Positions 15,072 through 61,100 of a stretch of DNA of 64,000 nt are shown one piece after another. Source of the stretch: Candidatus Omnitrophota bacterium (GTDB lineage Bacteria > Omnitrophota > Gorgyraeia > Tantalellales > Tantalellaceae); assembly GCA_018813285.1 (NCBI GenBank), contig JAHJBY010000033.1:69157-133156 (forward strand), in the 5' to 3' direction. The position numbers were made by a program, and so were the translations under genes. A model generated the notes under the pieces. That model saw only the letters and a program-made list of their open reading frames with translations. It did not search any database and was not told where the DNA came from. Positions within the stretch are counted from its first letter, which is position 1. Each line of letters starts with the position of its first letter.

Positions 15072-16319
15072 CTAAAACACGTAACTTATACCTATCCCGA
15101 CGACTTCGGCGGCGGCGGTGACTTTTGTACCCTGGCCGACTCTACTGTACAAATCACCTGCGCCACTGTCTGCCATGGCATTGAAGAAATGATGCTCCCA
15201 CGTTAGATCCACTCCCCAATTGTCGTCGATCTGGTAAGCGAGGCCCGCCGTAAGGTGATGTTCCATAATAACGCCTAAAAGCGCGTTGGCAAAAATCACT
15301 TTTTCACGAATCGGTGATTTCCCGTAATTATATCCTAAACGCAATTTCCATTTATCGTTTGGGGTGTATTCGGAACCCGCCGAAAAAACCCATTGATCTT
15401 GCCATCCGAACCCTCCCTGCTGCGGGCCGCGGTAACAAGCCTTTGTTCCCTCCCAATTGATCCACCTGGTATCATAAGTGATCTCAAGCTTTTTTATCGG
15501 TTTAAATGAAAACCCAATGGAAGCGCTGCGCGGCGCGTCAATAAGATGGAAAGACTCCTTGTACTTGTTGAAATGTGACATAAATGTTTTACTCTCGTAA
15601 GCCGCTCCGATAGAGATCATATCGTTAAACGTATAGAGTATCCCCGCTGTGAATCCGCCGCCAACAGCCATATCGATCTTTTTATGGCCCGCGGTTTCAG
15701 GATATGTTCCATTAGAAGCAGCAAATGCCATGTCTGTGCTCAACGACGAAAGCCCGATATTCGCCGCTAATCCTATGGAAAAATTATCGGTTATACCCAC
15801 AGCGATCGCGGGTGTCATCCTCGACTGAGTGAGATATATGAACCGGTCGTATTGTCCGACTCCCAACGCAGGGTTTAACCGCGGCTCCGCATATGATCCC
15901 GCAACTCCTGCCAAAGTAAAAAAACCACAACCGACAGCCACCGGATAGTCACCAATACCGGACGTCTGATAACTCAAGCCGGAATCCATACCGGGTAAAT
16001 AGTTAATCTTGCTCTTCTGTCTTTTTCCGGCGTTAGACAGGGCCCCTTCAGTATGCATGGAAACATCATGAGGCAGTAAATTAAGGTATTCCATGTCGAG
16101 GCGGTTCCCTATCCGCACAAGCCCGGCCGGGTTCTTTATCATACATGAAGTATCCGCCGCGGACGCCGTGGTCGCGCCGGCCATGGCGCCGTCACGCGCG
16201 CTGAAACCGAGCATCCGGGTGCCGTTAAGCGCCACAGCGTTTTCCGGGAACATAAATCCCAAAGCTACCGCCACAATAACGAAAAAGATCGCGCATCTAA
16301 CAATTGTGCGTGTTTTCAT
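15072..16319 (-). CDS. Outer-membrane beta-barrel transporter, FadL/TodX-like
   Basis: Signal peptide at MKTRTIVRCAIFFVIVAVALG. Alternating amphipathic strands and a C-terminal aromatic residue (ISYVF). Gly/aromatic-rich, typical of FadL-family barrels. Confidence 0.65.
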   Translation of the reverse strand: MKTRTIVRCAIFFVIVAVALGFMFPENAVALNGTRMLGFSARDGAMAGATTASAADTSCMIKNPAGLVRIGNRLDMEYLNLLPHDVSMHTEGALSNAGKRQKSKINYLPGMDSGLSYQTSGIGDYPVAVGCGFFTLAGVAGSYAEPRLNPALGVGQYDRFIYLTQSRMTPAIAVGITDNFSIGLAANIGLSSLSTDMAFAASNGTYPETAGHKKIDMAVGGGFTAGILYTFNDMISIGAAYESKTFMSHFNKYKESFHLIDAPRSASIGFSFKPIKKLEITYDTRWINWEGTKACYRGPQQGGFGWQDQWVFSAGSEYTPNDKWKLRLGYNYGKSPIREKVIFANALLGVIMEHHLTAGLAYQIDDNWGVDLTWEHHFFNAMADSGAGDLYSRVGQGTKVTAAAEVVGIGISYVF

Positions 16320-16464
16320 AGTGGTTACTCCTTTTTTTAAAAACACTATAATTATCAGTACAAAGTATAGTGCTGAAAATTTGAAAAGCAAACAAAAAAA
16401 TATATTCTCTTCCTGCCATCACGCAATATTCCTATTATTGTTTGATGGTACTCCGAATTTTGAT

Positions 16465-16491
16465 CCGTAAAATATCGCGGAGATTTTACGG
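16465..16491. promoter_or_regulatory. Palindrome CCGTAAAAT-N9-ATTTTACGG in a divergent intergenic region
   Basis: Perfect 9-bp inverted arms read directly. Lies between the OMP gene and the XRE-cupin regulator gene; candidate operator. Confidence 0.35.
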
Positions 16492-16630
16492 ATGGTTCCT
16501 GCCAAAATTTGAAGTTATTCAAAATTTTGACTGCTTCTACAACCGTGTTATTTGTATCCTTTTTGTTTTGCTAACTGAATTTGATTTTTCACAAAAAATG
16601 TTGTATAATATCTGTCATCAAGGAGGAGAC

Positions 16631-17179
16631 ATGATGAAGATCGGGGAAAAACTTCACAATATCAGAAAAGAAAAAAACATGACGCTGGAAGATCTATCAA
16701 AGAAAAGCGGTGTCGCTCTCGCGACGTTGAGCCGCATGGAAAACAACAGGATGATCGGAACACTGGACGCGCATAACCGAATATGCAAAGCGCTTTCCGC
16801 CTCTCTTGCCGATCTGTACCGCGAGATCGAAGACGCGTCCAAAACGGTGGAAACCGTTTCCGAGGTCGCGCGCATAGATCATTTTGTCCATTCAAAAAAA
16901 GTGAAGTATGAACTTCTCGTCGCGAAGACACCGGATAAAAAGATCCTCCCGTTAATGATAAAGCTGGCCGGAGGCGGCAAAACGCGTGAAGAACGAAATA
17001 AGACCGGGACGGAAAAATTTCTATACGTAATGACCGGTTCTGTAAACGCGGTCATCGGACATAAGCAGTATTCTCTGTGCCAGGGAGACTCACTTTATTT
17101 CGACGCGTCCCTATCCCATGTATTCCATAACAGGATGAAATCCGACGCTAAAGTGATATGCATCATTTCACCGGCGTAA
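16631..17179 (+). CDS. XRE-family HTH plus cupin-domain transcriptional regulator
   Basis: ORF track 16442..17179; real start at ATGATG 16631 preceded by AAGGAGGAG. N-terminal HTH (LEDLSKKSGVALATLSRMENN); C-terminal cupin-like beta region. Confidence 0.8.
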   Translation: MMKIGEKLHNIRKEKNMTLEDLSKKSGVALATLSRMENNRMIGTLDAHNRICKALSASLADLYREIEDASKTVETVSEVARIDHFVHSKKVKYELLVAKTPDKKILPLMIKLAGGGKTREERNKTGTEKFLYVMTGSVNAVIGHKQYSLCQGDSLYFDASLSHVFHNRMKSDAKVICIISPA

Positions 17180-17185
17180 GCCTCG

Positions 17186-18511
17186 CTAACCGGATCGGCT
17201 CTTTATCCTGCCTTTCCTGTGCGCCAGGAGAAAAGCACTGACTATTATAGAGTCGAACTGGGTCCCGGAGTTGTCCTTTATCATCTGCACGGCGACTTCG
17301 TCTATTTTTCTCTGTCTGTAGGGCCTGTCGCTTGTAATAGCGTCAAACGTATCCGCTACAAAGATTATACGCGCGACGAACGGTATATCATCGCCCTTTA
17401 AACCATCGGGATATCCGGCACCGTCGTATCTTTCGTGATGCGCCCGAACCTCCATCGCAATGTCACCTAACTCCCGGATCGGATTTAATATCGTAGCGCC
17501 GGTAACGCTATGTTCCTTGATCTTTTCGTATTCCTCACGTGTAAGCTGGCTTGTCTTATTCAGTATGGCATCCGGTACGCCGATCTTGCCGACGTCATGG
17601 AGAAGCGCCGCAATATGCAGGGTCTCCTTGAAATTCGGATACTCTTTCGCTTCCGGGAGTTCCTCGATCTCGTTCGCTATCGCAAGGGCGTACTGCGTAA
17701 CTCGTTCGGTATGCCCGTGTGTGTACTGATCTCTGGCATCGATGGCCGCCGCCAGAGAAATAGCGGTGTGAATGAACATCCTGTGTTCTCTCTCGTAAAG
17801 AACATGGACTTCACGGATCTTATCCTGAAGATCCTGAATAAGTTGAGTGTTGGAAAGCGCCATTGCCACGTCATTCGCAAGTGTGGTAAAAAAACTGATC
17901 TCCTGCCGCGAGAACTTTTTCTTTGAAAGTTTTTCTCCGAAAATAAAAACACCAAGCAGGTCCCGTTTGTAATAGACCGGAACGGCCACATCCCCTTTTA
18001 ACAGCTTCATCTGTTCCGCAACTTGCGGAAGCAAATCGAATGCTGTGTCATTTACGTTTTTTTTCTCGTATTTTTTCGCGATGTTAACAATGTCCGCGTG
18101 AACGATCGCTCCTGAATCCGAGATCTTATAGTTCAGCCTTTCGTGAAAAAGCCGCACCAAAGCGTTGTTCAGGGTCAGCTTAATAAACCCTACCGGGATC
18201 TTACATCCCTCGGATCCCTTACTATCAATGAGGTGATAATAACCTTTACCCTCAGAATATATCAACATGGCAATATGCGTGGTCCTCACCTGTTCATCGA
18301 TGAGCTTGACTATCATCTTTATCAGATGCTCAGGCTTCTTGAACCGTATCATGCTACGAGAAGCTTCTTCAAGAAAAACCTGGTAATCCAGTTCCGCTTC
18401 CTGCCGGTGGGCTTGCAGTTGGTTAGACATTTCCATACCGCCGCCCGGGGCGGCCTTCACCTTGTTAGCCATCCATTCCTCTATTTTCTGCCATTCACTT
18501 TTATAGCTCAT
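17186..18511 (-). CDS. HD-GYP domain phosphodiesterase with N-terminal GAF-like sensor region
   Basis: 441 aa. HD-GYP signatures: HTERVTQYA ... LLHDVGKIGVPD ... HHERYDGAGYPDGL. Confidence 0.85.
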   Translation of the reverse strand: MSYKSEWQKIEEWMANKVKAAPGGGMEMSNQLQAHRQEAELDYQVFLEEASRSMIRFKKPEHLIKMIVKLIDEQVRTTHIAMLIYSEGKGYYHLIDSKGSEGCKIPVGFIKLTLNNALVRLFHERLNYKISDSGAIVHADIVNIAKKYEKKNVNDTAFDLLPQVAEQMKLLKGDVAVPVYYKRDLLGVFIFGEKLSKKKFSRQEISFFTTLANDVAMALSNTQLIQDLQDKIREVHVLYEREHRMFIHTAISLAAAIDARDQYTHGHTERVTQYALAIANEIEELPEAKEYPNFKETLHIAALLHDVGKIGVPDAILNKTSQLTREEYEKIKEHSVTGATILNPIRELGDIAMEVRAHHERYDGAGYPDGLKGDDIPFVARIIFVADTFDAITSDRPYRQRKIDEVAVQMIKDNSGTQFDSIIVSAFLLAHRKGRIKSRSG

Positions 18512-18526: not shown

Positions 18527-18901
18527 TTATGAAGATAGGCTGTGCTCCCCTGCCAGTTTCAGAACAATTTTCGCCAGCTGGCCCAGTACAAGCGGTTTCG
18601 TGATATACTCCGCGACACCGTAGGATCGGGCCTCGTCGATCTTGCCCATATCTTCCACCGCTGTGACCATGACCACTTTGCCCTGATAACACCGCTTTTT
18701 GAGCTCTTTCAAAGTCTCCATTCCATCCATAACCGGCATTTTTAGATCAAGAAGTATGATATCCGGGTTCTGCATCTCAGCAAGCACCAACGCTTCCCGT
18801 CCATTATTAGCTGTGACGACATCAAAATTCCGTTCTTTAAAAAAACTTTGCACAAAATCACAGATCTCGGTCTCATCATCCACAATCATTATCTTTATCA
18901 T
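18527..18901 (-). CDS. Single-domain response regulator (CheY-like receiver)
   Basis: 124 aa. IMIVDDE acidic pocket, DLKMP phospho-Asp region, VVMVTA, KP motif. Confidence 0.85.
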   Translation of the reverse strand: MIKIMIVDDETEICDFVQSFFKERNFDVVTANNGREALVLAEMQNPDIILLDLKMPVMDGMETLKELKKRCYQGKVVMVTAVEDMGKIDEARSYGVAEYITKPLVLGQLAKIVLKLAGEHSLSS

Positions 18902-19110
18902 CCTACGATGTCCTCCTCGACGCTATTGTCCGCTTTTTCAACAAGCTTTTCCAGCTCTTTCAAGCTCGCGACAGACTTTTCAACATAAGCATATGCCCCT
19001 TCATCCAGAAGTCGTGCTTTTGTCTCCCCCGAATCTTTAAAAGCCGTCACGATTATTACGTTGGACGCCTCATCGTCTATCGCCAGGATCTTGATCTTAT
19101 CTCTCCTCAT
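18898..19110 (-). CDS. Receiver-domain paralog with internal deletion; lacks the phospho-acceptor region
   Basis: 70 aa. KILAIDDEASNV aligns with beta1 of the downstream receiver, and IIVTAFKDSGETKARLLDEGAYAYVEK aligns with its beta4-alpha4-beta5. About 55 residues including the phospho-Asp are missing. Own AGGA RBS; ATGA overlap with the next gene. Confidence 0.45.
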   Translation of the reverse strand: MRRDKIKILAIDDEASNVIIVTAFKDSGETKARLLDEGAYAYVEKSVASLKELEKLVEKADNSVEEDIVG

Positions 19111-19122
19111 AATGTTTTTCCT

Positions 19123-21231
19123 TTACACGATCGAGAGCGCGGTGTTAAATAACAATTTAAAACTAGTCCCTTTACCCGGTTCACTATCAACACTGATACG
19201 GCCGTTATTTCTCTCAACAATCTGTTTCACAATAAAAAGTCCGAGGCCGGTACCGCTACCGGGTTCTTTGGTCGTGAAAAATGGATCCCAGATCTGGGCC
19301 AGTTGCTCCCGCGTAATACCGGAACCGGTGTCTTCGATGTTTATCTGCACATTGTTGCCCTTTTCTGACGCCTTTATCAATATCTTGCCGCGCCCCTTAA
19401 TTGCCTGCGCGGCATTCCTTATGAGGTTAAAGAATATCTCCTGCATTTGCTTTCGATCCGCGGAAATATTCGGAAGGTTTTTGGGTATCATTTTCTGTAT
19501 TTCCACATTATCAAGTTTAAGATCATGTTCAAGAAGCGCCATCACTTCTTCTAACTCTTTTTCTACGCTAACATCGTTTTCTTTCTCGTCTTTCGAGGGC
19601 TTGGAAAAAGCTGAAAGTCTTTTCGTTATGCTAGATGCCCTGTCAGTTTCGTTTATAACTTTCTCCATTATCTCCTGTGCCTTGTCGATAACCTCAGCCG
19701 GATCCGCGTTCTCATAGAACCCATCTTCCTTATTTAAAATGAATAACTCACATTGGCCGCGGATAATGCCTAACGGATTACATATTTCATGATTTATACC
19801 CGCGGAAAGTGTTCCGATAACCGCCATCTTTTCCCGCTGCGCCGCCTGCGCCTGGGCCTGGGAAAGTTTAGCAATGAGGCGGGCATTGGTAATAGCTATT
19901 GCTATTGTTCCGGCTAACGGAAGCAAAATATCGATATCGTCCCGTGTGAAATCTTCATCGGACTTCTTCGCCCCGAGTACCAGCAGGCCCAGAATGCTCT
20001 TGTCGCGCCGGAGGGATATGACCAAACTGCCGCCCAGGGTTTTGATAGTTTCGGCGGTATCGGAGGATAATTTCACGTCCCCGCTATCTCCCTTAGGTTC
20101 GATCATGCAATACCCGGATTTCTCCATATCCGCTATCAACGCCGGACAACAAGGCAAAACACACTCCTTGGCAGATGGTTCGCCCACGGAAGCCACAAGT
20201 TTGAAATCGCTGTCATCATCGTCGCGCAACAGAACGGATACGCAACGTAATTTCATTATTTCGCTGAGTTTGTTTGCCGTAAGACCGCCCAGGACCCCGA
20301 TATTCAGTACAGTTAATACGTCATCCGCGAAGGTTTTTAGCAGCTCTTTGTAGTCATATTTTTTCTGGAAAAGAAACTTATCAGTAACATTTACCAGCAC
20401 GTTTTCCAGCGGACGCAGTATGAGCACGATCACGAAAACCGACGGGAATAATGCGATCCACCGGTTCTCGAGCATATTCTCAAACACAAGAGACCCGAGA
20501 TACGCAAAACAGGCAAATACAGCGTAAGACGCCGCGAAAAGGCCGGTAAAAACAAGGGTCCTCTTTATTATGACGTCAATGCCAAGTAATTGGTGGCGCA
20601 CGATGGCATAGAAAATTACGCACGTATAAACGATCACGAAAAGATCATGTGGAACCATTTCCTGGATATTAAAAACCGGTAAAAAATGGACGAAACCGCC
20701 TATTAAAGCGATAAAAAATCCCCAGAATATATAATATAACTGTCTGGTCCTGGTCTTCATCATCACAGCATACAGTCTGCAAAAAGCGTATATGCAAATC
20801 ACGAAAAAAAACGCTATGAAAGCATAGAAGACGCCGCCCGGAACTATTTTCGACGATAAATTTAACCGTCGAATATCCAGGATAAAAAACGGAGAGTACG
20901 CGAACAGCAGAAAAAACACGCATATTATATATGTCGATCTTAAGACGATCTTATCGATTTTTCCGATCCACTTTTCTATGGTGGACAAAATGAAACGCAG
21001 GAATAACGCGGGCGCGAGGATGGCAAATAGATAAACCGCCCTCGAAAGAAACAGATCAGATAACCGGTCGTTGTACGCGATGATCGGGAAAAGGCACCAG
21101 ATGCCGGTAGCCATTGTCACTAAAATAAAATTTCTGTGAACAACGTTTTTGTTTTTCTGACACAAAACAAACATACTCAAGAAAATACATACCAGAGACG
21201 CGAGAAGCGAACTTATAGTATAAATTGTCAT
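19123..21231 (-). CDS. Sensor histidine kinase: polytopic N-terminal membrane domain, GAF-like region, HisKA, HATPase_c
   Basis: 702 aa; about 9-10 hydrophobic helices in the first ~300 aa. H-box (GINHEICNPLG). G1/G2 boxes (DTGSGI, GSGTGLGLFIVKQ). Confidence 0.85.
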   Translation of the reverse strand: MTIYTISSLLASLVCIFLSMFVLCQKNKNVVHRNFILVTMATGIWCLFPIIAYNDRLSDLFLSRAVYLFAILAPALFLRFILSTIEKWIGKIDKIVLRSTYIICVFFLLFAYSPFFILDIRRLNLSSKIVPGGVFYAFIAFFFVICIYAFCRLYAVMMKTRTRQLYYIFWGFFIALIGGFVHFLPVFNIQEMVPHDLFVIVYTCVIFYAIVRHQLLGIDVIIKRTLVFTGLFAASYAVFACFAYLGSLVFENMLENRWIALFPSVFVIVLILRPLENVLVNVTDKFLFQKKYDYKELLKTFADDVLTVLNIGVLGGLTANKLSEIMKLRCVSVLLRDDDDSDFKLVASVGEPSAKECVLPCCPALIADMEKSGYCMIEPKGDSGDVKLSSDTAETIKTLGGSLVISLRRDKSILGLLVLGAKKSDEDFTRDDIDILLPLAGTIAIAITNARLIAKLSQAQAQAAQREKMAVIGTLSAGINHEICNPLGIIRGQCELFILNKEDGFYENADPAEVIDKAQEIMEKVINETDRASSITKRLSAFSKPSKDEKENDVSVEKELEEVMALLEHDLKLDNVEIQKMIPKNLPNISADRKQMQEIFFNLIRNAAQAIKGRGKILIKASEKGNNVQINIEDTGSGITREQLAQIWDPFFTTKEPGSGTGLGLFIVKQIVERNNGRISVDSEPGKGTSFKLLFNTALSIV

Positions 21232-22352
21232 AAATAAACCAACTTTTTATTTTTGTCCGATATACTTTTTGCCGTTCTTGAGATTCTCTGATCAGTTATG
21301 ACTTCATACGCGCTTCGCAGTTCATTTATGCAAAATCCATGTTTTTCCGCCAGTTCCTTCATTTCTATGACCTTGTCAAAATCAACATTAGCTCCAATGG
21401 AATAATTTTCAAATTTTCGTTCCAATGTCAGAATCATGGTCTCCGCTATGCACGCATATGCCAGACCTTTATTTGGGCCAAAGAAAAAATTAAAATCAAC
21501 GTTGCTCGGCGGCCTTATCACGCCACCTTCGAACAACAATATATCATTTCTTCCTTCAAAAATATCTTCCGAAACGTTTTTGGGAACCGAAACATCACAG
21601 ACAATGGCTCCCGGAGGAAAATCATCCTCAGAAACCAAACTCTTGGGGTAGTTGGTCACAAACAGCGCCACATCCGCATGCTTCAAAGCTTCCCTTAAAT
21701 TCGTCGACACCTTCACTTCGCAGCTGTTTCCTATTGAGAGCAGATCATCTTTCTGGGCATCCAGCCTGGATTCGTTCCTGGCGACTAAAGTTACCTTTCC
21801 GACCTGGCCGGACATAACCAGCATTTTTGAACATACCTTCCCAATTTTCCCCGTTGCGCCCACGATCACGCAATTACTTTTTTTGAGATCAAGCCGGACT
21901 TGCGATGCCGCAAGAAATATCGCTTCTATTATGGAAACTATTGTATACGCGGAACCCGTCGTAATGGGAATATCCATTCTTTTAGCGAGTTCCAGGCCTC
22001 TGCGCCCCACTAAAGCGGTATAGGCCCCAAGACCAAGCATGCCGACGCCCATACTCTGAGCCAGTTCTCCGACTTTTACAAGATGACGCAAAAGAACGCT
22101 ATCGTTCATATTCAAAAATTGCTCGGGAACCATCATGCTGACAAAAAAGTAGCCCTCGATCTCTTTGCCGGTTTTGGACTTGATCCCGGTAATGGTCGAC
22201 TGGTAATAAGGATATACCCACCGCAAAACCCGTTCTGTCATCCTCTGTCTATCGGAATTTTCTTCAATGGAAAAATCTAAACGAGGCTCATCGTATGCCT
22301 TGGCGGTCATATGCCAATCGGTATTGTGCAAAAGAAATCCAAATTTATCCAT
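21228..22352 (-). CDS. Acyl-ACP reductase (AAR)-like NAD(P)-dependent reductase
   Basis: 374 aa. From memory it resembles cyanobacterial AAR: FGFLLH vs FGLIGH N-terminus, Rossmann VIVGATGKIGKVCSKML vs VAVVGATGDIGSAVCRWL, LVARNESRLD vs LTARNQERLD, C-terminal ...KHGF. Family assignment rests on recollection, not a search. Confidence 0.5.
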   Translation of the reverse strand: MDKFGFLLHNTDWHMTAKAYDEPRLDFSIEENSDRQRMTERVLRWVYPYYQSTITGIKSKTGKEIEGYFFVSMMVPEQFLNMNDSVLLRHLVKVGELAQSMGVGMLGLGAYTALVGRRGLELAKRMDIPITTGSAYTIVSIIEAIFLAASQVRLDLKKSNCVIVGATGKIGKVCSKMLVMSGQVGKVTLVARNESRLDAQKDDLLSIGNSCEVKVSTNLREALKHADVALFVTNYPKSLVSEDDFPPGAIVCDVSVPKNVSEDIFEGRNDILLFEGGVIRPPSNVDFNFFFGPNKGLAYACIAETMILTLERKFENYSIGANVDFDKVIEMKELAEKHGFCINELRSAYEVITDQRISRTAKSISDKNKKLVYL

Positions 22353-22785
22353 TTTCGCACTTCCTTTTTAGCGATAAAACCATTCCTTTAAGCGCCTTTT
22401 TTGCCTTTCTTTCCAGCATCGCGCCGACGTGTTTTTCCATATTGGGTACGCCCCAATCAAAATAAGCTTCCAGTTTGATATTTGAGCCGTTATCCCCTGT
22501 ATCTTCGATCCGCCATTCCCCGCAATAGATATAAAAATCCCCTTCGAGAGCTTTAAATGAGATGGTTTTGCTCTGTTTGTGGATGATCTCTTCCTCTGTC
22601 CACTCAAAAGGCGCTCCGTCAAAGTCGACCTGCCATCTCATTCGCAGGATATTTCCATTACCCGGCAGTTCAGTGATCTGTTTTACGCCGGAAATAAAAT
22701 CCGCGTACTTTTTAAAATCTTTCACGACCTTAAACACCTCCCCGGCCTTTTTGTTTATTTTATTCACGACTTTTATCCGTATCAT
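22345..22785 (-). CDS. SRPBCC (polyketide cyclase/START-like) ligand-binding protein
   Basis: ORF 22345..22869. Likely start MIRIKVVNKINKKAGEVFKVVKDFKKYADFI, typical of Polyketide_cyc2 N-termini. About 146 aa. Confidence 0.6.
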   Translation of the reverse strand: MIRIKVVNKINKKAGEVFKVVKDFKKYADFISGVKQITELPGNGNILRMRWQVDFDGAPFEWTEEEIIHKQSKTISFKALEGDFYIYCGEWRIEDTGDNGSNIKLEAYFDWGVPNMEKHVGAMLERKAKKALKGMVLSLKRKCENG

Positions 22786-22805: not shown

Positions 22806-22985
22806 TTAGATCGTTTTCTTCTCTTGTTTCTCTATCCAGTTGTCGATAGTTGATTTTTTGAAGCGCCAACTGGAGCCAACCTTAAAGGCCGGAAGCTTCC
22901 CCTGCTGGGCGTGCTTATAGATGGTAACCACCTTTATTTTCAGGTATTTGGCTACCTCATCTACGGTCATCATTTGACTGGCCAT
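22806..22985 (-). CDS. Excisionase-family helix-turn-helix DNA-binding protein
   Basis: MTVDEVAKYLKIKVVTIYKHAQQGKLPAFKVGSSWRFKKSTIDNWIEK matches the excisionase/MerR-like HTH_17 pattern. Start taken at internal MASQMM. Confidence 0.7.
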   Translation of the reverse strand: MASQMMTVDEVAKYLKIKVVTIYKHAQQGKLPAFKVGSSWRFKKSTIDNWIEKQEKKTI

Positions 22986-23168
22986 AATCCCTCCACGTAT
23001 GCAATCCCCTTCGATCACACTTTTTATGGTTTGTTACCTATTGTTACAAATTACCCTTTATTGACACCTGCTAACACTATTTCATATATAGCGATACGAG
23101 TTAGCAAGTGCTGTAAAGTATAATGACTTCCGGGAAAAAAGCAAGAAACGTGTGTCAAAAAAGCGGTA

Positions 23169-23256
23169 GGGGCGAAAGATTTTTCGCCCACGAATTCACA
23201 AAGGGCGAAAGATTTTTCGCCCACGAATTCACAAAGGGCGAAAGATTTTTCGCCCC
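23169..23256. terminator. Triple tandem hairpin array (33-bp period) downstream of pgpA
   Basis: Three copies of GGGCGAAAGATTTTTCGCCC (8-bp stem GGGCGAAA/TTTCGCCC) separated by the identical ACGAATTCACAAA spacer. On the minus strand the array is followed by CCTACCGCTTTTTT. Confidence 0.6.
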
Positions 23257-40983: not shown

Positions 40984-41061
40984 ATGGTCGGGGCGCTGGG
41001 ATTCGAACCCAGGACCTCCACGTCCCGAACGTGGCACGCTAGCCAAGCTGCGCTACGCCCC
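40984..41061 (-). tRNA. tRNA-Pro (anticodon CGG), CCA encoded
   Basis: Reverse complement reads CGGGGCGTAGCGCAGCTTGGCTAGCGTGCCACGTTCGGGACGTGGAGGTCCTGGGTTCGAATCCCAGCGCCCCGACCA. Cloverleaf with 7-bp acceptor, anticodon loop TTCGGGA, T-loop GTTCGAATC. Confidence 0.85.
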
Positions 41062-41183
41062 GACAACAAAATCCCACAAACGCGGGTATATTATCATGTT
41101 AATAAACATTTTGCAACACATCATTAGTGAAAGGGTTAACACAAAGAAAGCCGTCAGCCATAAGCTATCAGCTTTCAGCTAAA

Positions 41184-44923: not shown

Positions 44924-46123
44924 TTATACATGTTTCAATTTATGCCCTAAACGGTTTTTTTTTGTTCTCAGATATTTTTTATTCCGCGTTACCGGTTTTA
45001 TTTCCAGCGAACACCTTTTGACCACATGTAATCCGTAGCCTTCAAGCCCGACTACTTTCCGGGGATTATTGGTCAGAAGGATGATCTTTTTGAGGCCGAG
45101 ATCGACCAGTATCTGCGCGCCGATACCGTAATCCCTTAAATCAGCTTTAAAGCCGAGCTTTTCGTTCGCTTCGACCGTATCCAGGCCATTGTCCTGGAGT
45201 TCATAGGCCTTTAATTTATTAAATAAACCGATGCCGCGCCCTTCCTGCGAAAGATAAAGTATCACCCCTTTGCCTTCGTCAGAGATCGTTTTCATGGCTT
45301 TTTCGAGCTGGCTGCCGCAATCGCATCGGAGTGAATGAAAAACATCACCGGTCAGGCATTGTGAATGCACTCTCACCATAACTTCTCCGCTGGAAACATC
45401 ACCTTTTATTAACGCCAAATGCTGATAATCATCAAGCATAGAGCTGTACGCGCACATGCGGAATTCTCCGAAAGGTGTCGGCAATGTGGTCTCCGCGATT
45501 TTTTCAATAAGCCTCTCCCTGGTCCGACGATAGCGGATAAGATCTTCTATCGTGCAAATCTTTAGTTTGTATTTTTTAGCAAACCTGATAAGCTGCGGCA
45601 ACCTGGACATCGATCCATCCTCGTTCATGATCTCGCAGATAACGCCGACAGGGCGTTTATTCACAAGTTTCATGAGATCTACACATGCCTCCGTATGCCC
45701 GGCGCGGACAAGCACCCCGCCACGCCTGGCCCGCAGTGGAAATACATGTCCGGGTTTCGTAAAATCCCCGGCAGAAGACTTTTTCGAGGCAAGCAGTTTT
45801 ATGGTCTTTGAACGATCATGCGCGGATATGCCTGTAGTCACGCCCTTTTCGGCGTCTACAGACACAGCCCAGGCCGTCTTATACGGATCTTGCGGATCGT
45901 GCGACATTTGACGTAAATGCAGTTCTTCGGCAACGTCTTCTTCCATCGGCACACAAATAAGCCCCCTGCCATGTTTTATCATAAAATTTATTTTTTCAGG
46001 AGTAGCATGCTCCGCGGAAACTATCAGGTCACCCTCATTTTCACGCGACGGATCATCGACCATTATGACCATCCGGCCGCGCTTAATATCTTTTAGCACT
46101 TCTTCTATCGAGTTCAGTTTCAT
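44924..46123 (-). CDS. ribBA: Bifunctional 3,4-dihydroxy-2-butanone-4-phosphate synthase / GTP cyclohydrolase II
   Basis: 399 aa. N-terminal DHBP synthase and C-terminal GCHII with the CxxC...C zinc motif ([20 protein letters not shown]). Confidence 0.9.
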
Positions 46124-46245: not shown

Positions 46246-46274
46246 TTATATCACGCATATTTACTTCTTACGTG

Positions 46275-46420
46275 TACTTCTCCCATCCCGGCTGTCTTCG
46301 CGTTTTCACGCGACGGTCGGCACCCGATTCTCACAGGTTCAGACCCTCACGGATCTCGCGGGCTAATCTCCCTTGGGAGCATCACCGCCGGCTAAGGAAT
46401 TGCGCCTTACCCTGAAGTCT
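46275..46420 (-). ncRNA. FMN riboswitch (RFN element) aptamer
   Basis: Minus strand contains CAGGGUAAGG...AUUCC, AGCCGGCGGU, AGCCCGCGAG, GCCGAC and 3' GGGAUGGGAGAAG. These match the conserved RFN blocks in order, directly upstream of ribBA. Confidence 0.78.
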
Positions 46421-46472
46421 TAACCATGCCAACACATACGCGTTGTAAGTCAAGTGTTAAATACATTTAACC

Positions 46473-52177: not shown

Positions 52178-55100
52178 TTACAACGCCACAGCGGTCTTTG
52201 TGATGGCATCGATCTCCTGCCGGATCTCTTCGCCTATGTTCAGCCTGGTGATCTTAATCAACAGGTGAAGAATATCTTTTAGCCCTTTTTCTAATCGCTT
52301 TAAGGTTTCTTCCGCGCATTCTACGGCCATTATCCGGGGCGCGTCCTTCTCATCCAGTGTCCTCTTAAGAAGGCTCACCACTGCCACTTCCGGCAATATC
52401 CGATTTATCCTCTTTCCTGCGGCGTCATCCGTTAATACATTCTTTCCCAAAAGCACAAAACCGGGAACATTCTCTTTCCCTTCCGCGCGCATATAGTTGA
52501 TCAAATTTTCTGTTAAGGCCCCGGATTCGACCGCTGCCATTGAAACGTCTGCAGGCCGTATATTCACTCCCTTGACTTCCAGGCTTTTCAATACCTCTTT
52601 AACCGTATTGGATATATTTTCCTTCTTCCGGTTTGGATCAAGCACAACAGGTATGACATTCTTTAAACTTATGATTTCTTCCGGGATCGGAACATCACGC
52701 GTTGTGGCGACACATATATAAAAACGCTTATCCGCAAATGCCTTTATCGCGGGAATCATTTCGCCTATGTCAACACCCGGAAATCTTGTATCAATGACAA
52801 TCGCCTTCGGAACCTCAGGGATCAGCTCCATCAAACTCTTCTCCATACCCTTGATCTTTTCATCCTCATGCTTTGCCGCCATATTTTTGAAATCCAGAAG
52901 ATCGCCAAACGGCATTTTCGGGTTGTCATTAAGATATTTCACAAATCCGGAATGATAGCCGAGAAATCTGTCCCTGAGATCCGCCTTTTCTTCATCAGAA
53001 AGGCTGTCATCACGATCTGCGGTAACCGCTTCGCCAGCTGATTTGCAATACTCGTCGGCCCATTTTTCGTTATCACCCGGGACTATGGAAGGAAATCGAA
53101 ATTCTTCCCCGGCCAATGCCCTGGGATAATAATCCCGCATGATAGAACCCAACACATCATGATGAGCCTCATCCGGCAATACATCCTGCAATACATTAAG
53201 TATATTTCCCATGTCATCAAGAGTCTTGCCTTCCAGGGCCATCATCGCGCCTTCATCCAGGCCGCCGGCATACGGATGAATAAGGTATGGGAACATATTC
53301 GCAAGAGCCTGGATCTCCGCGATCCTTACCGCTTCCTTTATCGCGTCTTCCATATCCGTTTCTTCTCTCATTTCAATGAGCACATGCGGCTTTAAGCCAG
53401 CTTCCGTCGCGATCTTTTCGAAAGCTTCTTTATTTTTTACCGCGATAAATTCTATATTCGCGTAATTTTTTATGATCGGATATTTTTTCTCCATAGCGCC
53501 TTCATCCGCGCCCACGATCCCGATAACGGCTACAGGCGTGATTACCGGCGGCATCTTTTTCGTCGTCGGCGGCAAGGATGCCGGTCCTGACCTTATCGTA
53601 GCGTAAGGAACGGCTTTTCTCCCGACTACCGTATTTGTAATAAAAGCGGTTAGATTTACCACTGAATGAAGCGCAACAGCAACAGTTAACAACTGCCACA
53701 CACCGGTCTCAATCACGAAAGGCATAAATATATTTAATCCGGTAACAAGGAGCGCTGTTTTCCACCCGTGTTTATGCAACAGCACGAAAAATATCCCGGA
53801 TAATATCTGAAGAGACGCTAAAATAAGCACAGATGTCTGAACCGAAGGGCTCACCCCCATAAGCCCTGTGATAACAGGCGTAAGACACTGCGTTAAAAGA
53901 AGAGGAACGCCGAAGTATACCATCCTCTCTCGGAAAGGCGCCAGCAGCAAATGCTCCATACCGAATTTAGTCTGATTCCATAAAATGGAATCATCTTTCC
54001 CTATCCCAAGTTTGTTACGGGCACTATTTACGACAGACGAATAAGGTGCCTCTTTATGCATGGCATAAAACACCTGAAACGCGCCCGCCCTGTCACCTTT
54101 ACCCAAATAAGCATGGACCAACAATCTCCGCGCTTTTAGTCTGAACTCGCCTTTTAAAGACTTATCAAAAAATGGTATAGCGCCATCAAAATCCCTCGCG
54201 GCGAGATTCATTAAAGCCAGGCAAAAATATAAATTAGTTTTTAATTCTTCTTCCGCAAACTCGATTTCTCCCAGGTTATTTACCGCATTTTGAATCGAAT
54301 CAAATAACAACACTTTTTCTCTGATTGTTTTTATCTCTGGAAGGAATGTTCCTTTACCAGTAATAGCCCGGATAAGAGTTTCCGAAAACCTGGCATTAAG
54401 ATGACCAAGGAGAGTGCTTATAAACAGTTTGTCTTTTTCCCCTTGCCTCGAAAGCATCGCCGATAACACGGCGTGATACGCGCCGTCATTCAGAAAGAAT
54501 AAGTTAATAAGCTCCTTTGCCAATGTCTCGTTAAACGTTTTTTCGGAAATCGCTTTAATCCCATCAATTAAGACCTTATCGTTTATAAGCCGCTTTCTTA
54601 AGTTTTTCCTCTTTCTCTCTCTCAACCCGTCGTCAAACAATACGGATTTCCCGATCTCCTTAATGCAAATTTCAAACACGCTGTCCGCACTCTTACTGTA
54701 GGGAATCGTTTTTAGCAGATAAACCGACAGATTAAATACCTTATCGTTTTCATTCCGCACCTTCCAGAAAGTGAACATCTTCTCCAGCAACGCCGGCAAT
54801 TCTTCCAGGACAGTTTCGAACTCATCGCTCTTAAGACCCCCTATAACCGCAGCAACATCATCGTATGCTTTCGCTTTGCCAGAATCCGCATCTTTCTGTA
54901 ACTTTTCAACACGCCGCTGTTTCCTCTCCCGCGTTTCCTGTGACACTTTCCTGCCCGATTCTATCCGGTACACTTCTTCATGGCATGATATAATATCTCC
55001 GTATATCTGTATCTTTTCCCGCGCGTTTTTCCCTTTCGCGGATAATGTCAAAATATGCCCTTTCAATAAATCGTCCATCCGGGCTTTGTCGCCTCCTTTA

Positions 55101-58100
55101 AATACAAGCTCCTTTGACAAATCCTTCAATCTTTCACTTCCGGGAGCTATCTCTTGCGCCTTCCTTAGCAAAATCTCAGCCCTCACAAGCTCGCCATTCT
55201 GCAGCGCCCTCGCAGCCATCCCGAGAATAAGATTTACCGTCGGTTTTTTATCAGCATCCTCGAGCCCGGAAGGTTCAAGTTTCTGTTTTTCGGCAACCGC
55301 AACGTTTTTCTTCAGGCTTAACTTCCTCCTTTCAAGAAGACCCCGGACCTGTTCGAGCCTTTTTTTTCTTTCGGCTTCTTCTTTTTGATCTTCGCTCACT
55401 TTTTGAACGGCTTCTTCACGATCCTTTTTCATATAAGGTTTTTCAAGAATTTCTTTCTCTCTCGAACCTAACAAATCCTCCAGGCCGTCTTCCCGTGACC
55501 GTATCCAGGAAATGATCTCTCTTCTGCGCCTTTTTTCTATACTCGCATCCTTTCCTTCCTTTTCCAACTGCCGCAATTCGGTTTCCAGTCTCGCTCTCTC
55601 ACCCTTGAGTAGTGTTATCCCTTTACTTATTTCTTTTTCTTCTTTTTCGAACCGCGCCAAATCCTGCCTAGCTTTCGCTGATCCTGCTATTGTCCGGTTT
55701 ACATTCTTTCTAATTTTGTTAATCTTATCGACCCTTTCCTTCACTTCTCCCCTTGTCTCACCGGCCAGGTCATCTTCCGCGTCCAATTCTTTCAATACGC
55801 GACTTGCTTCTTCGAATTTGCCCTCATCAAAATATGCCTCGGCCAGGTTTAACCTGTTTTCCGGCGTGGAACTGAGTTCTGCCGCCTTCTTTAAATCTTC
55901 TATCCTATCCCCTGCCTTTTTCTGTCCCTTTGCCCGATCAACAAAAATATCTGCCATCTGTTGTCCCGCTGTCTTCCGTGCAAAATCGGCATCCAACGCT
56001 ACCGCTTCTTCATGCCGCTCGATCGCTTCAGCTGCCGCTTCTTCATTCCGTTCGACCGCTTCGGCTTCCGCTTCCCTGCCTTCTTCCAGCGCCAGGTCCC
56101 TGAGACCGACTTTCGCAAGAACGCAGCGTTTATCCATCCATAACGCCCGATAGAAGCTTTCTTCTGCTTTCCGAAAATCCCTAACTTCTCCCTTAAGATA
56201 CGTCAGTCCTTTAAGCACGGTAAGCCGCGCCAGTAACGGCCTGTTGTTTCTTTGTTTTCTGCTGGATAAATCAGAATACGCCCCCTGCAACACGTCGATA
56301 CATATACCTATTGCAAAACTGTCCGTGCGAAACGTGTCGGGAAAAAACTCATACATCTTTTCAAGATAATCAACTCCTTTTTCCACAAAAGCCGCATCCC
56401 TGTCCACCCCGGCAGAATACGCTCCCATATGTTCTATCACACTCTTATACATGCCGCGAAGTTCATCGATAAAGCCGCTGTCCTCTTTCAACTTCTCATC
56501 TAACTGCCTCGCTTTTTCCATGTTATCTATTGCTAAATCAAAAAGTTTTTGAGATTCCGTCATGTTTTTCGCCGAAACTTCGAATTCCGCCAGCCCCCGT
56601 CCGGACAGCGCCATAAACCTGTAAAGCTCGGCTTTTTCATAACCGGACTTTTCGGCTTTCAGGAAAAGTGAATAGGCCTTACTGAAATCATTCCTTTCAT
56701 ACGCTTCGATACCTGACCTAAACAAACTTTCCGCTTTAACTTCTTCCCCTGCTTTCGCGGCACGCCAGAAGCGAAAGCGAGCCCGCATCCTCCTCCCCCG
56801 GAACCTGTGTATATAACCCCGGATCATATACGCGTACTGACGGCACGCTTTAATATTTTCGAGTTTCTTAATGGCAAGTGTCAGGGCTCCAAGATCAACA
56901 CTCGTCGGCACTATTCCGCGGACAAGCATGGTTTCTCTTATTTGCCCCATTAAAAGCCGAAGAAGCTCCGTTTTATCTTCCACCGAGAGAAGTTTAGGCT
57001 CAAGGACCTCGATAATAAGTTTTCCGTTATTAAGACCAAACCGTTCATTCAATAAAACAATGCTCACTTTTTTTGCTCTATGAGGAGCACTGAACATCAC
57101 CTTCTTGAAACCATCATCCGAGATAAAATACTGCACCCTGGATGGAATACTCTTCCCCAGCCCTCCAAGTTCTTCTATCCGACTGGTCCAAGAGACGAAA
57201 AGTTCAATAATCTGGTCGTCATGCCTCGAGTCATACCTGAGCCTTATCGCTTCTTTAAGGTTTTCCGCGACAGTTTCCTCGACGTCCCGCGTTTCGTCCG
57301 AAGCAAGCCCCAGTTTAGCCTTCAGTAAATAAAACAACATCCATTCGTCAATGTTTTCAACATCTCCCGCTCTAAACTCATTCAGAAGCTCTTCTGACTC
57401 TTTGATCCTTGTCCTGGCAATTTTTGAGACATCCGCCTCTTGCAGCAACAGTTCGGCAAGTATCAATTTGGAGCTGTTCAAATATTCTCCCAGCTCTGTC
57501 TTTTTGACGCTTATAACCCACCTTAAGAGCGAAATCGCGCCCGCCCTTTTTTCGCCGTCCAGCCCCCGTTCCCTGAGGATATAGACAAGTTGTTCATACG
57601 AAATATCCTTCATGGAATCAAATGTTCCCGTGATATCAGTATTAAGCGGGCCGACTTCCTTTTCGAGCTTACCTATGCGCCCCCTAACCGCCGCCGTCAT
57701 ACCGGCTCTTTTCGGAATTTTCTCGAATTTTTTAATATATTCCTCTAACGCTTCCTTCTTCTGTCCGAGTTTCCATGTTTCCCGGGCTTTTTCGGCCATG
57801 ACAGAAATATTTCTCTCTCTGACTGCCTTCTTTATCTTTTCCTTTCTTGTCACGACATATTTTTCGATTTCCGCGTCTTTCTTTCTTTGCAATTCATTCA
57901 GTTTTACACGATGTTCCTGAGCTTTCGCGTTATTCTTAACCGCGGTGTCATCGCTCTTTTCGTACAACCCGATCAATTTCTCATGAGCGTCTGCGGCGTC
58001 CTCATCATTAAGACCTTCCCCAACAGCCTTTTCCAGATCATCCGCTGCCGGCCGTGTTCTGCCGTCGGCCAGATGCAAAAGCCCCCGTTTAAAATGTGCC

Positions 58101-61100
58101 CTGCCGTTTGACTGATTCAAAGATAAAGCTTTTTCATAATCTATCAATTTTTGTGCACGCGTCATGGGCGCGACTTCCGCGTATAAAAGATATGCGTTTG
58201 ACAATTCCCCAGTAACATCCGGGGCGTTTTCTCTGCCGCTTAACTTTTTCATAATAGATTTCGCTTTCCCGAACACCCTTTCTTTATATTTATCATCGGG
58301 TATGGCCTTCCCCTGTTCTATCAGCGCCTGTGCCAGCTTAAACCGGGCGGCATATCTCTTGCCGGCGCTGATATACCGCAAAGGAGCCTGCCACCACCCA
58401 TGCAGGGCTACGATCCTGCTGTGCGCCTTACCGGTAATCCTATCAAAATGTGATTTGAGTTCTTTTTTCCTGGTTTCATCCTCAATATTCTCGATATGTT
58501 CTTTAGCCGAAGAAACTTCATGGAGGACCTCCCGCAAGCGTTGTATTTTCGAGGCGGGTCTACGCAATACATCCCTCCATTTCCATTCCATTCTTTTTTC
58601 TATGCGCGCCTTCAGCGCTTCCACAAGTTTTGTTTTTATCTCGTCCAATTTATCTTTTGTTTCGTTTTTCTCTTTCTCATCAGTTATCTCATCGGGTTTG
58701 ATATTTTCTATCGCCTGCCGCGCGTACGTAATGACCTTCTCCTGTTCTTTCACTTTCCACGCGAATTCAATAACTTTCTCATAAAGCCCTGCATCTTTTC
58801 CATCCGCCTCGATCGCCTTGTCGTAATACTCAAACGTTTTCTTTCTATCATCGATAGGCCTGAAAATGAGATATTTACAGACTAAATACGCAACAATGAG
58901 TGTCCCGAGAGTTCCGATAACATAGGGCATTATTCCGTGCAGATGTGTACCGGCGGTTTCAAGCATGCCCATAAACTGCAGCACACCGACTCTGCGGCAA
59001 TACGACAACAACAGTAGCAAAGATAACAAAATAATGACTCCTCCAGCGCAAAGAACGACACTTTTCACGTCGCTATACGTCCTGTATCTGTTCATATAGC
59101 CTTCGGCGATCCCTGCATATGTCTCTTTTGAAACGTCTTTCAGCTTCTCGCATTTTCTGAAATCTGAAAATGCTTTTCCCTTCCAGTTCTTGTCACGATT
59201 TATCTCCGCCCTCAGAAGCCGCGCCTTAAGTTCCGCGTCGTTCAACCCGCCGGGCAACCTCTTCTTCATCCTGAACGAAAGAAACTTCCTTAACCTGGAA
59301 AAATCCTTCCATCTCAAGACCTCATTCAACTCTTCCAATGCCTCGTCCGTTCTGCCCACCAAAAGCTTAAGTGCTTCCGCTTTCAGCACCATCGCCTCCG
59401 CCGCGTAAGAAAGCACTCTTTTCGCCGATTCGACTGCTTTAAGACCCTCATCAGCGTATTCACTCGTAGCATCCGTATTCCCTTCCTTCGATTCCTCTTC
59501 GCTTTTTCCATTATACGCGGCCGCGAGAGCGATATAAGCTTTATGCAGTTCCAACGGATTATAAAGTATCCTCTCGAGTTTTATTGTAAGTTTGTGTGCT
59601 TCAAAATTGTATTTATCCTTTTCCACGGCTTTTTTCGCTTCAGCGAGCGCTTCCTCAAAATGGTTGAGGCTAAAATGCGCCCGGGCAAGCTTGTAATGCG
59701 CCTCGCTGTTTTCCGGGTCAAGTTTCACGGCCTCTTCGTACATAGCAATGGCGGAAAGGAGATTACGCGCGCGTTTTATCATTCCTTCTTCACCAAACTT
59801 TTCATATAAACCTTCTTCGTCCACTCCCGCAAACACATCCGCCTCATTGATCAACTGCTTGAAATCGCTTTTTGACAGCTCATAAGACGCTAATTCGTCT
59901 TCGGCGCTCTTTCTTTCCGTTTCAGGAATGATTTGAGTTTGTCTCGCGAGAAAACACTTTTTCTCTTCACCCGTCATATCATGCCAGGACTTCTGTTTCT
60001 TATCCGCATGACACGTCTTTATGTCCGTGTAAAGCACTTCAAGATCACTGATAAGTTTCTCGACATAAAGCGCTTTAAGATCATCGGCAAGTTTTTCAAC
60101 CACGTTCATCTTGCCTTTGCCTTTAGCGATAACATCTAAAATGGCGTCTTCAAGCCCCGGTTCTTCTGCCAAACGCGTAAGTTTAAACACGTCTTTTATC
60201 ACTTCCCGCAGAAATTCGTCAAACTCCGGTAATATCTCTCGACTTGACAGGTTTGACTTTTCGTACGCGAGGTCGATAAAACCTTCAAGTGCCGTAACGC
60301 GCGCCAGGCGGCTGATCTTACCGTTCATAAAAACAGCAAGCAGCAATCTCGCGAGTTTGCCGGTCTTGTCGTCTTTTTTAAGTTTTTCTGTTACATATTC
60401 CAGGAGTTCAAGCACCGGAAAATCCACTCCTTCGATCAATACTTTGTCCTTCTGTGCGCTCGCAAACGCCTCCGCCATCGCGTCAATCCCAACAACCTTT
60501 TTTGCCAGCCGTAGCCGCAGGTCCCGAAATCTTTCCTCAAGCATCCTTCGTTTCTTCCTGTCCGTTTCCGTATGTTTGATCCTTTCGAGTCTTTTGTCTA
60601 TTTCCCCTGTCAGCTCCACAAGCTTCTCTTTATAGCCATAAATATAATCCAACAACTTGTCGGCGACTTCCTCGGCGACCTTCTTCCCGTCGTCAGAATC
60701 GTCCGCCAATTCAACGGCATCAAGATAAGCGTTGCGCGCCCGTTGCAAAGCATCATCCCCCTTAGCATCATTTTCACCCTTTTCGGCTTTTCTTTTCTTT
60801 TCCTTCTCCTGCGCCTCGGCAAACTCTTTACTTGATTTTTCGACTTTTTTCTTCAATGTTTCTTTCTCTTCTTCCAATTTATCGAGTTTTTCTTTTATTT
60901 TTTGAACCCGTGCCTCTTTTTCTTTTATCGCTCCATCATTGCCTTCTTTTTGCTTACGAACTCCGAATATTTCCCCCTTAATTCTGCTTTGTTCTTCTAA
61001 TTGCAAAGCAAGTATCGCCTCATCAAGCTTCCCCCGAAGCTGATCGATTTCTTTGTCTAAAACGTCCCGTTCGCGTTTTAATCCATCCATTTCTCTTTGC

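Follow-up and report, generated by a model that had tools for sequence, protein, structure and literature searches.

What does an enzyme resembling the cyanobacterial acyl-ACP (acyl carrier protein) reductase, AAR, do where no aldehyde-deformylating oxygenase (ADO) is at hand to take its product? The question is raised by a gene in a 64,000-nucleotide stretch of a Candidatus Omnitrophota genome (assembly GCA_018813285.1, contig JAHJBY010000033.1, positions 69,157 to 133,156), referred to below as the window. The original prediction, made from the sequence alone, placed the encoded protein in the AAR family, noted an SRPBCC protein next to it and no ADO, and supposed a different functional context. 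We consider it on balance probable that this protein is an NADPH-dependent acyl-thioester reductase which would pass its aldehyde to the SRPBCC protein, the two forming the enzyme cartridge of a sensory system linked to cyclic di-GMP (c-di-GMP); the thioester reductase chemistry taken by itself, as read from homology, merits considerable confidence. The enzyme type is known. What is new here is a dedicated SRPBCC partner and a signalling-operon home for a reductase of the AAR/PigE N-terminal (PigE-N) type; the searchable literature, itself incomplete, yielded no description of an SRPBCC protein paired with an acyl-ACP reductase or of an Omnitrophota kinase/c-di-GMP cassette.

A predicted thioester reductase closer to PigE than to AAR

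The public record holds an identical protein, a hypothetical protein from a Candidatus Omnitrophica metagenome-assembled genome. All four motifs on which the family assignment had been based are present in the open reading frame (ORF): F4-G5-x3-H9 (FGxxxH), V162-IVGATGKIG-171 (VxVGATGxIG), L189-VARNESRLD-198 (LxARNxxRLD) and K337-HGF-340 (KHGF). Comparison with hidden Markov models (HMMs), suggested at the time as a check, put PigE first (NCBIfam NF053554, model positions 1-360 of 837, 176.7 bits, E 7.7e-52, below the cutoff of 850) and cyanobacterial AAR second (TIGR04058, residues 57-341, 113.8 bits, E 1e-32, under the equivalog cutoff of 449.7); shikimate dehydrogenase and glutamyl-tRNA reductase (GluTR) were not the best assignment. 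In phmmer searches of the PDB the reductase matched PigE (4ppm) over residues 3-358 with E 7.9e-28 and AAR (6jzq) over residues 57-341 with E 4.6e-22. Structure prediction, the other check suggested, returned the AAR fold: an AlphaFold model built with 25 homologs as input (pLDDT 92.3, pTM 0.92) was aligned by Foldseek with AAR at TM-scores of 0.71-0.79 (E 1e-24), and with the terminal amidation domains (TAD) of nonribosomal peptide synthetases (NRPS) at about 0.72. The three-domain fold, the Rossmann mid-domain, the invariant cysteine where a C-terminal helix begins and the TTG motif that characterise the AAR / PigE-N / TAD superfamily (COG5322-type fold) are all found. The reductase is a member of the AAR superfamily, not an AAR ortholog, and is nearer to the PigE N-terminal thioester reductase. 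The AAR-family assignment is upheld by fold, cysteine, TTG and NADPH loop as far as the superfamily goes; as a statement of orthology it falls, the TIGR04058 score being far short of the cutoff.

Conservation of individual residues (Table 1) was counted over an alignment of 120 reductase homologs. The catalytic cysteine, C301, is invariant in all 120, and TTG, GATGxIG, D253-x3-P257, E304, E311 and HGF are likewise conserved; the TTG junction motif has been reported for both TAD and AAR. At the positions of R189 and R193, two of the three AAR arginines that serve the 2'-phosphate of NADPH, stand R192 (118/120 homologs) and R196 (R or K in 100/120). The surface with which AAR docks ADO reads differently. 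AAR R73, R79 and K80 correspond to N83, R89 and H90; the loop bearing R118 (Fr-II) is deleted in every one of the homologs; and Y247, whose replacement by alanine costs AAR both ADO binding and substrate binding, is V256. To judge from the alignment, then, the catalytic apparatus of a thioester reductase appears to be present and the AAR-specific partner surface absent. A further cysteine, Cys252, is peculiar to the clade: it is invariant in 119/120 homologs, where AAR and PigE have isoleucine. It stands immediately before the Asp253-x3-Pro257 loop, which in relatives sits by the nicotinamide, and may act as a redox switch or as a second site for carrying the acyl group.

With PigE's N-terminal domain, from the 2-methyl-3-n-amyl-pyrrole (MAP) branch of the Serratia prodigiosin pathway, the reductase shares a full-length match from residue 3, the catalytic cysteine, the Rossmann loop, the FGF..H motif and R268/D270; the reductase domains of TamH and KecF group with PigE-N as the closest known relatives. 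PigE is, however, fused to a class-III aminotransferase and encoded in a pigment cluster, whereas the reductase stands alone with SRPBCC in a signalling operon. To AAR (Synechococcus elongatus orf1594; PDB 6JZQ/6JZU/6JZY) it is likened by the fold, the cysteine, GATGxIG, the R189/R193 equivalents, E297 and HGF, and by analogy an AAR-type ping-pong acyl-enzyme mechanism with NADPH would be expected; it differs in having only 24-25% identity, a different N-terminal stretch of about 50 residues, the additional Cys252, and an anaerobic, non-phototrophic host. The TAD of NRPS and polyketide synthases (CarI; PDB 9E4S and related) have the same two-lobed fold, a cysteine next to the nicotinamide and the TTG junction, but identity is 15-18%, they reside in megasynthases, where the role proposed for them is amidation and not aldehyde release, and they are NAD-specific through an Asp where the reductase has Arg192.

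The SRPBCC protein is a dedicated partner

The SRPBCC neighbour recorded in the original prediction is directly upstream of the reductase (PF03364 59.2 bits, gathering cutoff 23.4; PF10604 45.7 bits). Although a mechanically called ORF reaches a TTG at 22869, homologs are only 145-152 aa long and the ATG at 22785 is the most likely start; the end of the gene overlaps the start of the reductase gene by 8 nt. The supposition of a different functional context proves right in outline, but it had treated the SRPBCC protein as incidental and missed the kinase cassette described below. In dozens of relatives SRPBCC is fused to the reductase: 14 of the 15 long homologs in a first search were fusions with SRPBCC N-terminal and reductase C-terminal, joined by linkers of about 5-14 aa. 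SRPBCC is, by neighbourhood and by fusion, a dedicated partner of the reductase. With linkers so short, the SRPBCC domain would lie beside the N-terminal domain of the reductase. In AAR the acyl tunnel opens out at that domain, to which ADO also binds, and by analogy SRPBCC would be sited where ADO sits.

The model of the SRPBCC protein (pLDDT 93.2) matches TTHA0849 and the aromatase/cyclases (ARO/CYC) ZhuI and TcmN at Foldseek TM-scores of 0.84-0.91, with 0.90 for PDB 2d4r and 3tfz. Its conserved positions comprise three Trp residues, a GD motif, one further Asp and, in the C-terminal helix, a Lys. These proteins have in common with it the helix-grip fold with a hydrophobic cavity; identity is, however, only 18-20%, and the operon contains no polyketide synthase. 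As biocatalysts forming aldehydes or alcohols, reductases fused to SRPBCC and working with no oxygenase could be useful, AAR being poorly active without ADO.

Four of the fusions (P0029, P0039, P0050 and P0051) begin with an Arg-rich extension of 58-76 aa at the place where other relatives have PilZ; those of P0029, P0039 and P0050 share SWxLLLP(L/M)D ... NxR ... RR ... DRR..ERRG. None of these segments matches Pfam, nor are they hydrophobic. The idea that the fusion proteins are anchored in the membrane was rejected, since what is added at their N-termini is PilZ domains or Arg-rich stretches, not transmembrane helices.

A conserved kinase cassette with an interchangeable enzyme slot

The stop of the reductase gene overlaps by 4 nt the start of a gene for a seven-transmembrane (7TM) sensor histidine kinase, and the same overlap recurs in L001, L003, L008, L010 and L023, loci whose reductases are 40-58% identical to that of the window. 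Of the SRPBCC-reductase loci without an aminotransferase, 14 distinct ones have enough flanking sequence, and in every one of these a 7TM kinase gene follows either at once or after a single intervening gene; L174 is a further SRPBCC-reductase locus with such a kinase. The kinase-linked reductases form one clade in a neighbour-joining (NJ) tree.

Searching with the sensor half of the kinase (7TM + GAF) retrieved 283 relatives, and all those with a labelled source are from Omnitrophota. Eight of them, at 34-41% identity, were looked up in their loci (L167-L173 and the P0172 locus). The kinase, two receiver (REC) genes, the GAF/HD-GYP gene and an XRE-cupin gene on the opposite strand are kept in 8/8, and three of the eight cassettes occupy the same chromosomal place as that of the window, after rimO-pgsA-pgpA. 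The HD-GYP gene has the same position in L007, L009 and L167-L173, the XRE-cupin homolog (181-185 aa) the same relative position in L167-L173, and in L167, L168 and L170-L173 the variable enzyme slot comes after a small HTH_17 gene.

What changes is the content of that slot: a methyltransferase in L167; a 457-aa protein with a weak PilZ N-terminus in L168 and L171; a 319-aa protein in L169; a methyltransferase, an alpha-oxoamine synthase and a FabF-like ketosynthase in L170; an aldehyde dehydrogenase and a GMC oxidoreductase in L172; a radical SAM enzyme in L173; and, in the P0172 locus, an ACP with an NAD_binding_4 reductase, an AMP-ligase and a B12 radical SAM protein. A GMC-family FAD oxidoreductase of 432 aa, of the alcohol/aldehyde type, lies directly 5' of the 7TM kinase in three loci (L007:8085-9383, L172:3710-5008, L174:3281-4579); in L007 and L174 it is placed between reductase and kinase, and in L172 it accompanies the aldehyde dehydrogenase. 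SRPBCC with reductase is one "cartridge" among several sets of enzymes that can replace one another on the conserved sensory cassette, and much of the cartridge chemistry, as predicted from the families present, concerns acyl chains and aldehydes. In an NJ tree of the kinase sensor regions there is no grouping by cartridge, the kinases beside SRPBCC-reductase being interleaved with the others, which argues that cartridges have been exchanged between cassettes. The neighbouring pgsA and pgpA genes were rejected as a clue to function: they flank the cassette whatever its slot holds, and are absent from other SRPBCC-reductase loci.

A likely link to c-di-GMP and a proposed mechanism

In relatives whose reductase is 40-43% identical to that of the window, a PilZ domain is fused ahead of SRPBCC-reductase. 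It scores 42.5 bits in P0251 (PilZ-SRPBCC-reductase) and 34.9 bits in P0245, and in P0250, from L174, the order HTH_17-PilZ-SRPBCC-reductase is realised in a single polypeptide of 722 aa; downstream of P0250 come the GMC oxidoreductase and then the 7TM kinase, cut by the contig end. In L003 a PilZ-methyltransferase-hydrolase gene precedes the SRPBCC-reductase fusion. Because of these PilZ fusions and the HD-GYP protein that terminates the operon, we favour a model in which c-di-GMP is set by the kinase cascade, with the cartridge enzymes as effectors.

The steps would then be as follows. On the strength of homology, an acyl group from acyl-ACP or acyl-CoA would move onto Cys301, and NADPH hydride would reduce the acyl-enzyme with release of a free aldehyde, fatty aldehyde or alcohol formation, offered as an example in the original prediction, being the likely chemistry. 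The hydrophobic aldehyde, as the architecture suggests, would be captured at the N-terminal domain of the reductase by SRPBCC, not by ADO or a transaminase. Context suggests in turn that the kinase-REC-HD-GYP cascade would set c-di-GMP levels and that the SRPBCC-reductase cartridge would be the biochemical arm of the system, producing or altering a lipid-derived aldehyde; among relatives, the fused PilZ c-di-GMP receptor domain would gate the cartridge directly. Aldehyde-forming lipid chemistry would in this way be placed within a two-component/c-di-GMP operon, giving a testable entry into the signalling of Omnitrophota, a phylum with almost no experimental biology.

A number of observations weigh against this reading. 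Within the enzyme, the third phosphate-binding arginine of AAR, R314, is Ala321, at a position that varies across the family; in its TAD relatives that cysteine may, with NAD, serve for amidation; and substrate and product are for every member of the reductase clade presumed from relatedness. PigE-N itself has been described as reducing a thioester to the aldehyde, but the activity could not be demonstrated with the purified protein (PMC8341465). As to signalling, neither the SRPBCC protein nor the reductase of the window carries PilZ, so the c-di-GMP link in this genome is drawn by analogy. The kinases adjacent to SRPBCC-reductase are not monophyletic, and there is consequently no evidence for enzyme-sensor co-evolution; the NJ trees, moreover, carry no support values. 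The first REC gene is a deletion remnant: about 60 internal residues, the phospho-acceptor region among them, have been deleted in frame, and no Pfam match is left. For this reason the cassette may be partly decayed, in the genome or in the assembly, although an 83-aa REC fragment at that place in L171 suggests that the first REC may have decayed repeatedly, as opposed to being an assembly artefact. Finally, the operon structure is drawn solely from overlaps and synteny, a scan of 14.8-23.4 kb for promoter and terminator consensus sequences having performed no better than on shuffled sequence.

Spread and neighbours of the reductase family

The family motif is found in at least 594 GTDB species representatives; the species listed are for the most part anaerobes, drawn from Bacillota, Chloroflexota, Armatimonadota, Vulcanimicrobiota, Actinomycetota, Coprothermobacterota and Omnitrophota. 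Most of its members are labelled "shikimate dehydrogenase" or "hypothetical", a misannotation corrected here. A 50%-clustered library gave 2771 representatives at E<=1e-3 and 431 at E<=1e-30; a metagenome scan supplied further contexts, with no relative closer than 43% identity and no near neighbours.

ORFs were called in 166 related loci and the neighbours classified with purpose-built HMMs. Five contexts were distinguished. In the commonest (A), a helix-turn-helix protein (C6), a protein of about 304 aa (C1) and the reductase are inserted between dus and greA-lysS. Context B, in Vulcanimicrobiota and others (11 full and 2 truncated loci), has the order class-III aminotransferase, SRPBCC, reductase, C1; as its aminotransferase matches PigE's C-terminal half with 413.6 bits, it amounts to a "split PigE". 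Context C, that of the window, is SRPBCC, reductase, 7TM histidine kinase. Context D, in Anaerolineae (L062, L068, L080, L085, L157), runs small GTPase, alpha/beta hydrolase, hexapeptide transferase, reductase and REC-GGDEF, and ends with a protein of about 2000 aa containing nine GAF domains. In context E the reductase comes straight after an aminotransferase. In the NJ tree of reductases, B, C and D come out as one clade apiece. The Anaerolineae arrangement is a second instance in which the reductase family is tied to c-di-GMP and GAF signalling.

Fusions among the top 147 representatives number 25 C1-reductase, 12 SRPBCC-reductase and 7 aminotransferase-reductase. C1, the commonest neighbour of the family across phyla (loci L005-L166), has many invariant residues, e.g. 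GSGLKNTLER and TTTPE..GRSFGTN (an example is L024:6072-7001); it has no match to Pfam, NCBIfam or PDB profiles, and hhalign shows no relation to the reductase. C1 and reductase are an uncharacterised, widely conserved two-protein system in anaerobes. The characterised relatives turn a carrier-bound acyl group into an aldehyde which then goes to a bound partner, ADO in the case of AAR and a transaminase in those of PigE, TamH and KecF. The simplest generalisation, by analogy, would be that the family hands its aldehyde to lineage-specific acceptors; the hand-off rule of AAR-ADO, GluTR-GSAM and PigE would so be extended to SRPBCC and to the C1 partners, for each of which both neighbourhood and fusion speak.

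Alternative readings

The best surviving alternative, which we entertain only tentatively, is that synthase and receptor of a signal are encoded side by side: the product of reductase and SRPBCC, a lipid-derived aldehyde or derivative, would be the ligand of the 7TM/GAF region of the adjacent kinase, with c-di-GMP as output, and the variable slot would encode different signal chemistries in different lineages. Consistent with this, the enzyme genes are immediately 5' of the multi-transmembrane sensor kinase gene and translationally coupled to it; the slot contents are all of small-molecule, acyl or aldehyde chemistry, methyltransferases included; the alpha-oxoamine synthase found in a slot beside the ketosynthase matches the model of the CqsA-type autoinducer synthase (196.7 bits, below cutoff); GAF domains, which bind small molecules, occur in both the kinase and the HD-GYP protein; and REC-GGDEF and the nine-GAF protein come after the reductase in Anaerolineae. 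Precedents for such pairs are cqsA-cqsS, lqsA-lqsS, phcB-phcS and bphO-bphP. The cqsA-cqsS, lqsA-lqsS and phcB-phcS-phcR systems resemble the cassette in setting an acyl-derived biosynthetic enzyme beside a multi-transmembrane kinase and receivers, but differ from it in that the cassette has unrelated enzyme families, a 7TM + GAF kinase, an HD-GYP output, an interchangeable slot and, in some cases, PilZ on the enzymes. Against signal synthesis, the kinase sensor regions are not grouped by slot content, so that the co-diversification expected of synthase and receptor is not seen at this resolution; PilZ fused to slot enzymes points to enzymes that act downstream of c-di-GMP; the operon encodes no export function; and in the literature we found no ligand for HisKA_7TM. 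A feedback loop would reconcile the effector and the synthase-receptor models. With equal reserve, Omnitrophota signalling might be pictured as modular, a 7TM/GAF kinase-REC-REC-HD-GYP cassette with swappable cartridges of which that of the window makes a fatty-aldehyde-type signal sensed by the kinase. Were this true, a kinase-sensed fatty aldehyde would amount to a previously undescribed lipid-aldehyde signalling chemistry with a coupling to c-di-GMP, in ultra-small bacteria of a phylum that is largely uncultured.

We think it improbable that the aldehyde is instead turned into a primary amine, as by PigE, TamH and KecF, by a class-III aminotransferase encoded elsewhere in the genome. PigE is the best match of the reductase, and the gene order of the sister clade (context B) and the aminotransferase-reductase fusions counted above speak for such a pathway. 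But tblastn with the sister-clade aminotransferase against the whole 64-kb window returned nothing at E<=0.01, no aminotransferase adjoins the pair in any of the kinase-linked SRPBCC-reductase loci, and kinase-linked and aminotransferase-linked reductases fall in separate clades. The effector reading, with SRPBCC as recipient of the aldehyde, is preferred.

A true cyanobacterial-type AAR making alkanes with an ADO encoded elsewhere is very hard to credit and can be taken as effectively excluded. The fold and the catalytic cysteine are the same, and the JGI name for some homologs is "fatty aldehyde-generating acyl-ACP reductase"; yet the TIGR04058 score is about a quarter of the cutoff, the docking residues are lost, and the family is, among the GTDB species listed, overwhelmingly one of anaerobic lineages. 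ADO requires O2. The window contains 51 ORFs of at least 90 aa, nearly all of which were scanned against Pfam, and no ferritin-like ADO was among them, as the original prediction had said of the neighbourhood.

A shikimate/quinate dehydrogenase (AroE/YdiB) or GluTR, the idea with next to no probability, is likewise effectively excluded: PF01488 (Shikimate_DH) does exceed its gathering cutoff (35.5 against 24.3 bits) and NCBI records do name homologs "shikimate dehydrogenase", but the Pfam match spans the Rossmann part only (residues 149-266), which is why the public records bear that name, while GluTR/HemA (TIGR01035) scores 31.9 bits against an equivalog cutoff of 209.55 and Foldseek TM-scores to both are about 0.3 with root mean square deviations above 10 A (for shikimate dehydrogenases 0.30-0.36, at about 10 A or more), compared with 0.71-0.79 for AAR. 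The superfamily assignment stands because these matches are poor and the catalytic cysteine is present.

The operon and its surroundings

Table 1. Coordinates in the window of operon genes, reductase residues and adjoining elements
Feature	Position	Strand	Basis and details
HTH_17 (excisionase/MerR-like) DNA-binding protein, first operon gene	22806..23018	minus	PF12728, 67 bits; 70 aa from GTG
SRPBCC helix-grip (START/Bet v 1-like) hydrophobic-ligand-binding protein (predicted)	22345..22785	minus	PF03364, PF10604; 146 aa
AAR/PigE-N-superfamily NAD(P)H-dependent thioester reductase (predicted)	21228..22352	minus	ATG start, 374 aa
TTG131-133 junction motif of the reductase	21954-21962	minus	conserved among homologs
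GATGKIG165-171 dinucleotide loop of the reductase	21840-21860	minus	counterpart of AAR GATGDIG
R192 and R196 of the reductase	21765-21779	minus	equivalents of AAR R189, R193
Clade-specific Cys252 of the reductase	21597-21599	minus	family alignment
Catalytic Cys301 of the reductase	21450-21452	minus	aligned with AAR C294, PigE C296
Sensor histidine kinase: HisKA_7TM, GAF, HisKA, HATPase (PrsK-like architecture)	19123..21231	minus	PF16927, PF13492, PF00512, PF02518
70-aa remnant of first REC gene	18898..19110	minus	compared with intact 131-133-aa first REC of L008, L009
Stand-alone receiver response regulator, 124 aa	18527..18901	minus	PF00072, 95.6 bits
GAF + HD-GYP protein, 441 aa, predicted c-di-GMP phosphodiesterase	17186..18511	minus	PF13487 HD_5 132.2 bits + GAF
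XRE-family HTH + cupin regulator, convergent	16442..17179	plus	HTH_26/HTH_3 + Cupin_2
33-bp x 2.6 perfect tandem repeat	23170..23255	.	Tandem Repeats Finder score 172, 100% matches

The true start of the HTH_17 gene is possibly the ATG at residue 12, and that of the XRE-cupin gene probably the ATG at 16631, which would give 182 aa. The kinase aligns over its full length with PrsK (TIGR02916) at 138.5 bits, under the cutoff of 300; no exosortase genes were seen in the Pfam scans of the window ORFs. Both the HD (LHDVGK) and the GYP (GAGYPDG) motifs of the HD-GYP protein are intact. The tandem repeat, situated between the pgpA stop and the HTH_17 gene, has a GC-rich hairpin, GGGCGAAA...TTTCGCCC, in each unit; it probably marks the boundary between two operons and could be a stacked terminator or a regulatory element like those of the repetitive extragenic palindromic (REP) type.

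Around the operon lie housekeeping genes: the dcw cluster, pgsA/pgpA, rimO, rodZ, ftsK, uppP, dut, pnp, ribF, truB, rib genes and groEL. Adjoining the XRE-cupin gene is one for an outer-membrane channel for hydrophobic compounds of the FadL/TodX family (15072-16391, minus strand, PF03349 76.3 bits); in the other cassette loci examined this gene is not at that place, which is taken by uvrA or giant ORFs. A giant ORF of at least 3940 aa (52178-64000, minus strand) runs past the end of the window, and the P0172 locus and L170 also have giant ORFs (3467 and 3922 aa, with Laminin_G_3 matches) immediately past the kinase cassette. An FMN riboswitch (46271-46423, minus strand, 70.6 bits) is upstream of ribBA (44924-46123), and a tRNA gene (40988-41062, minus strand) is in a 1.4-kb stretch without long ORFs.

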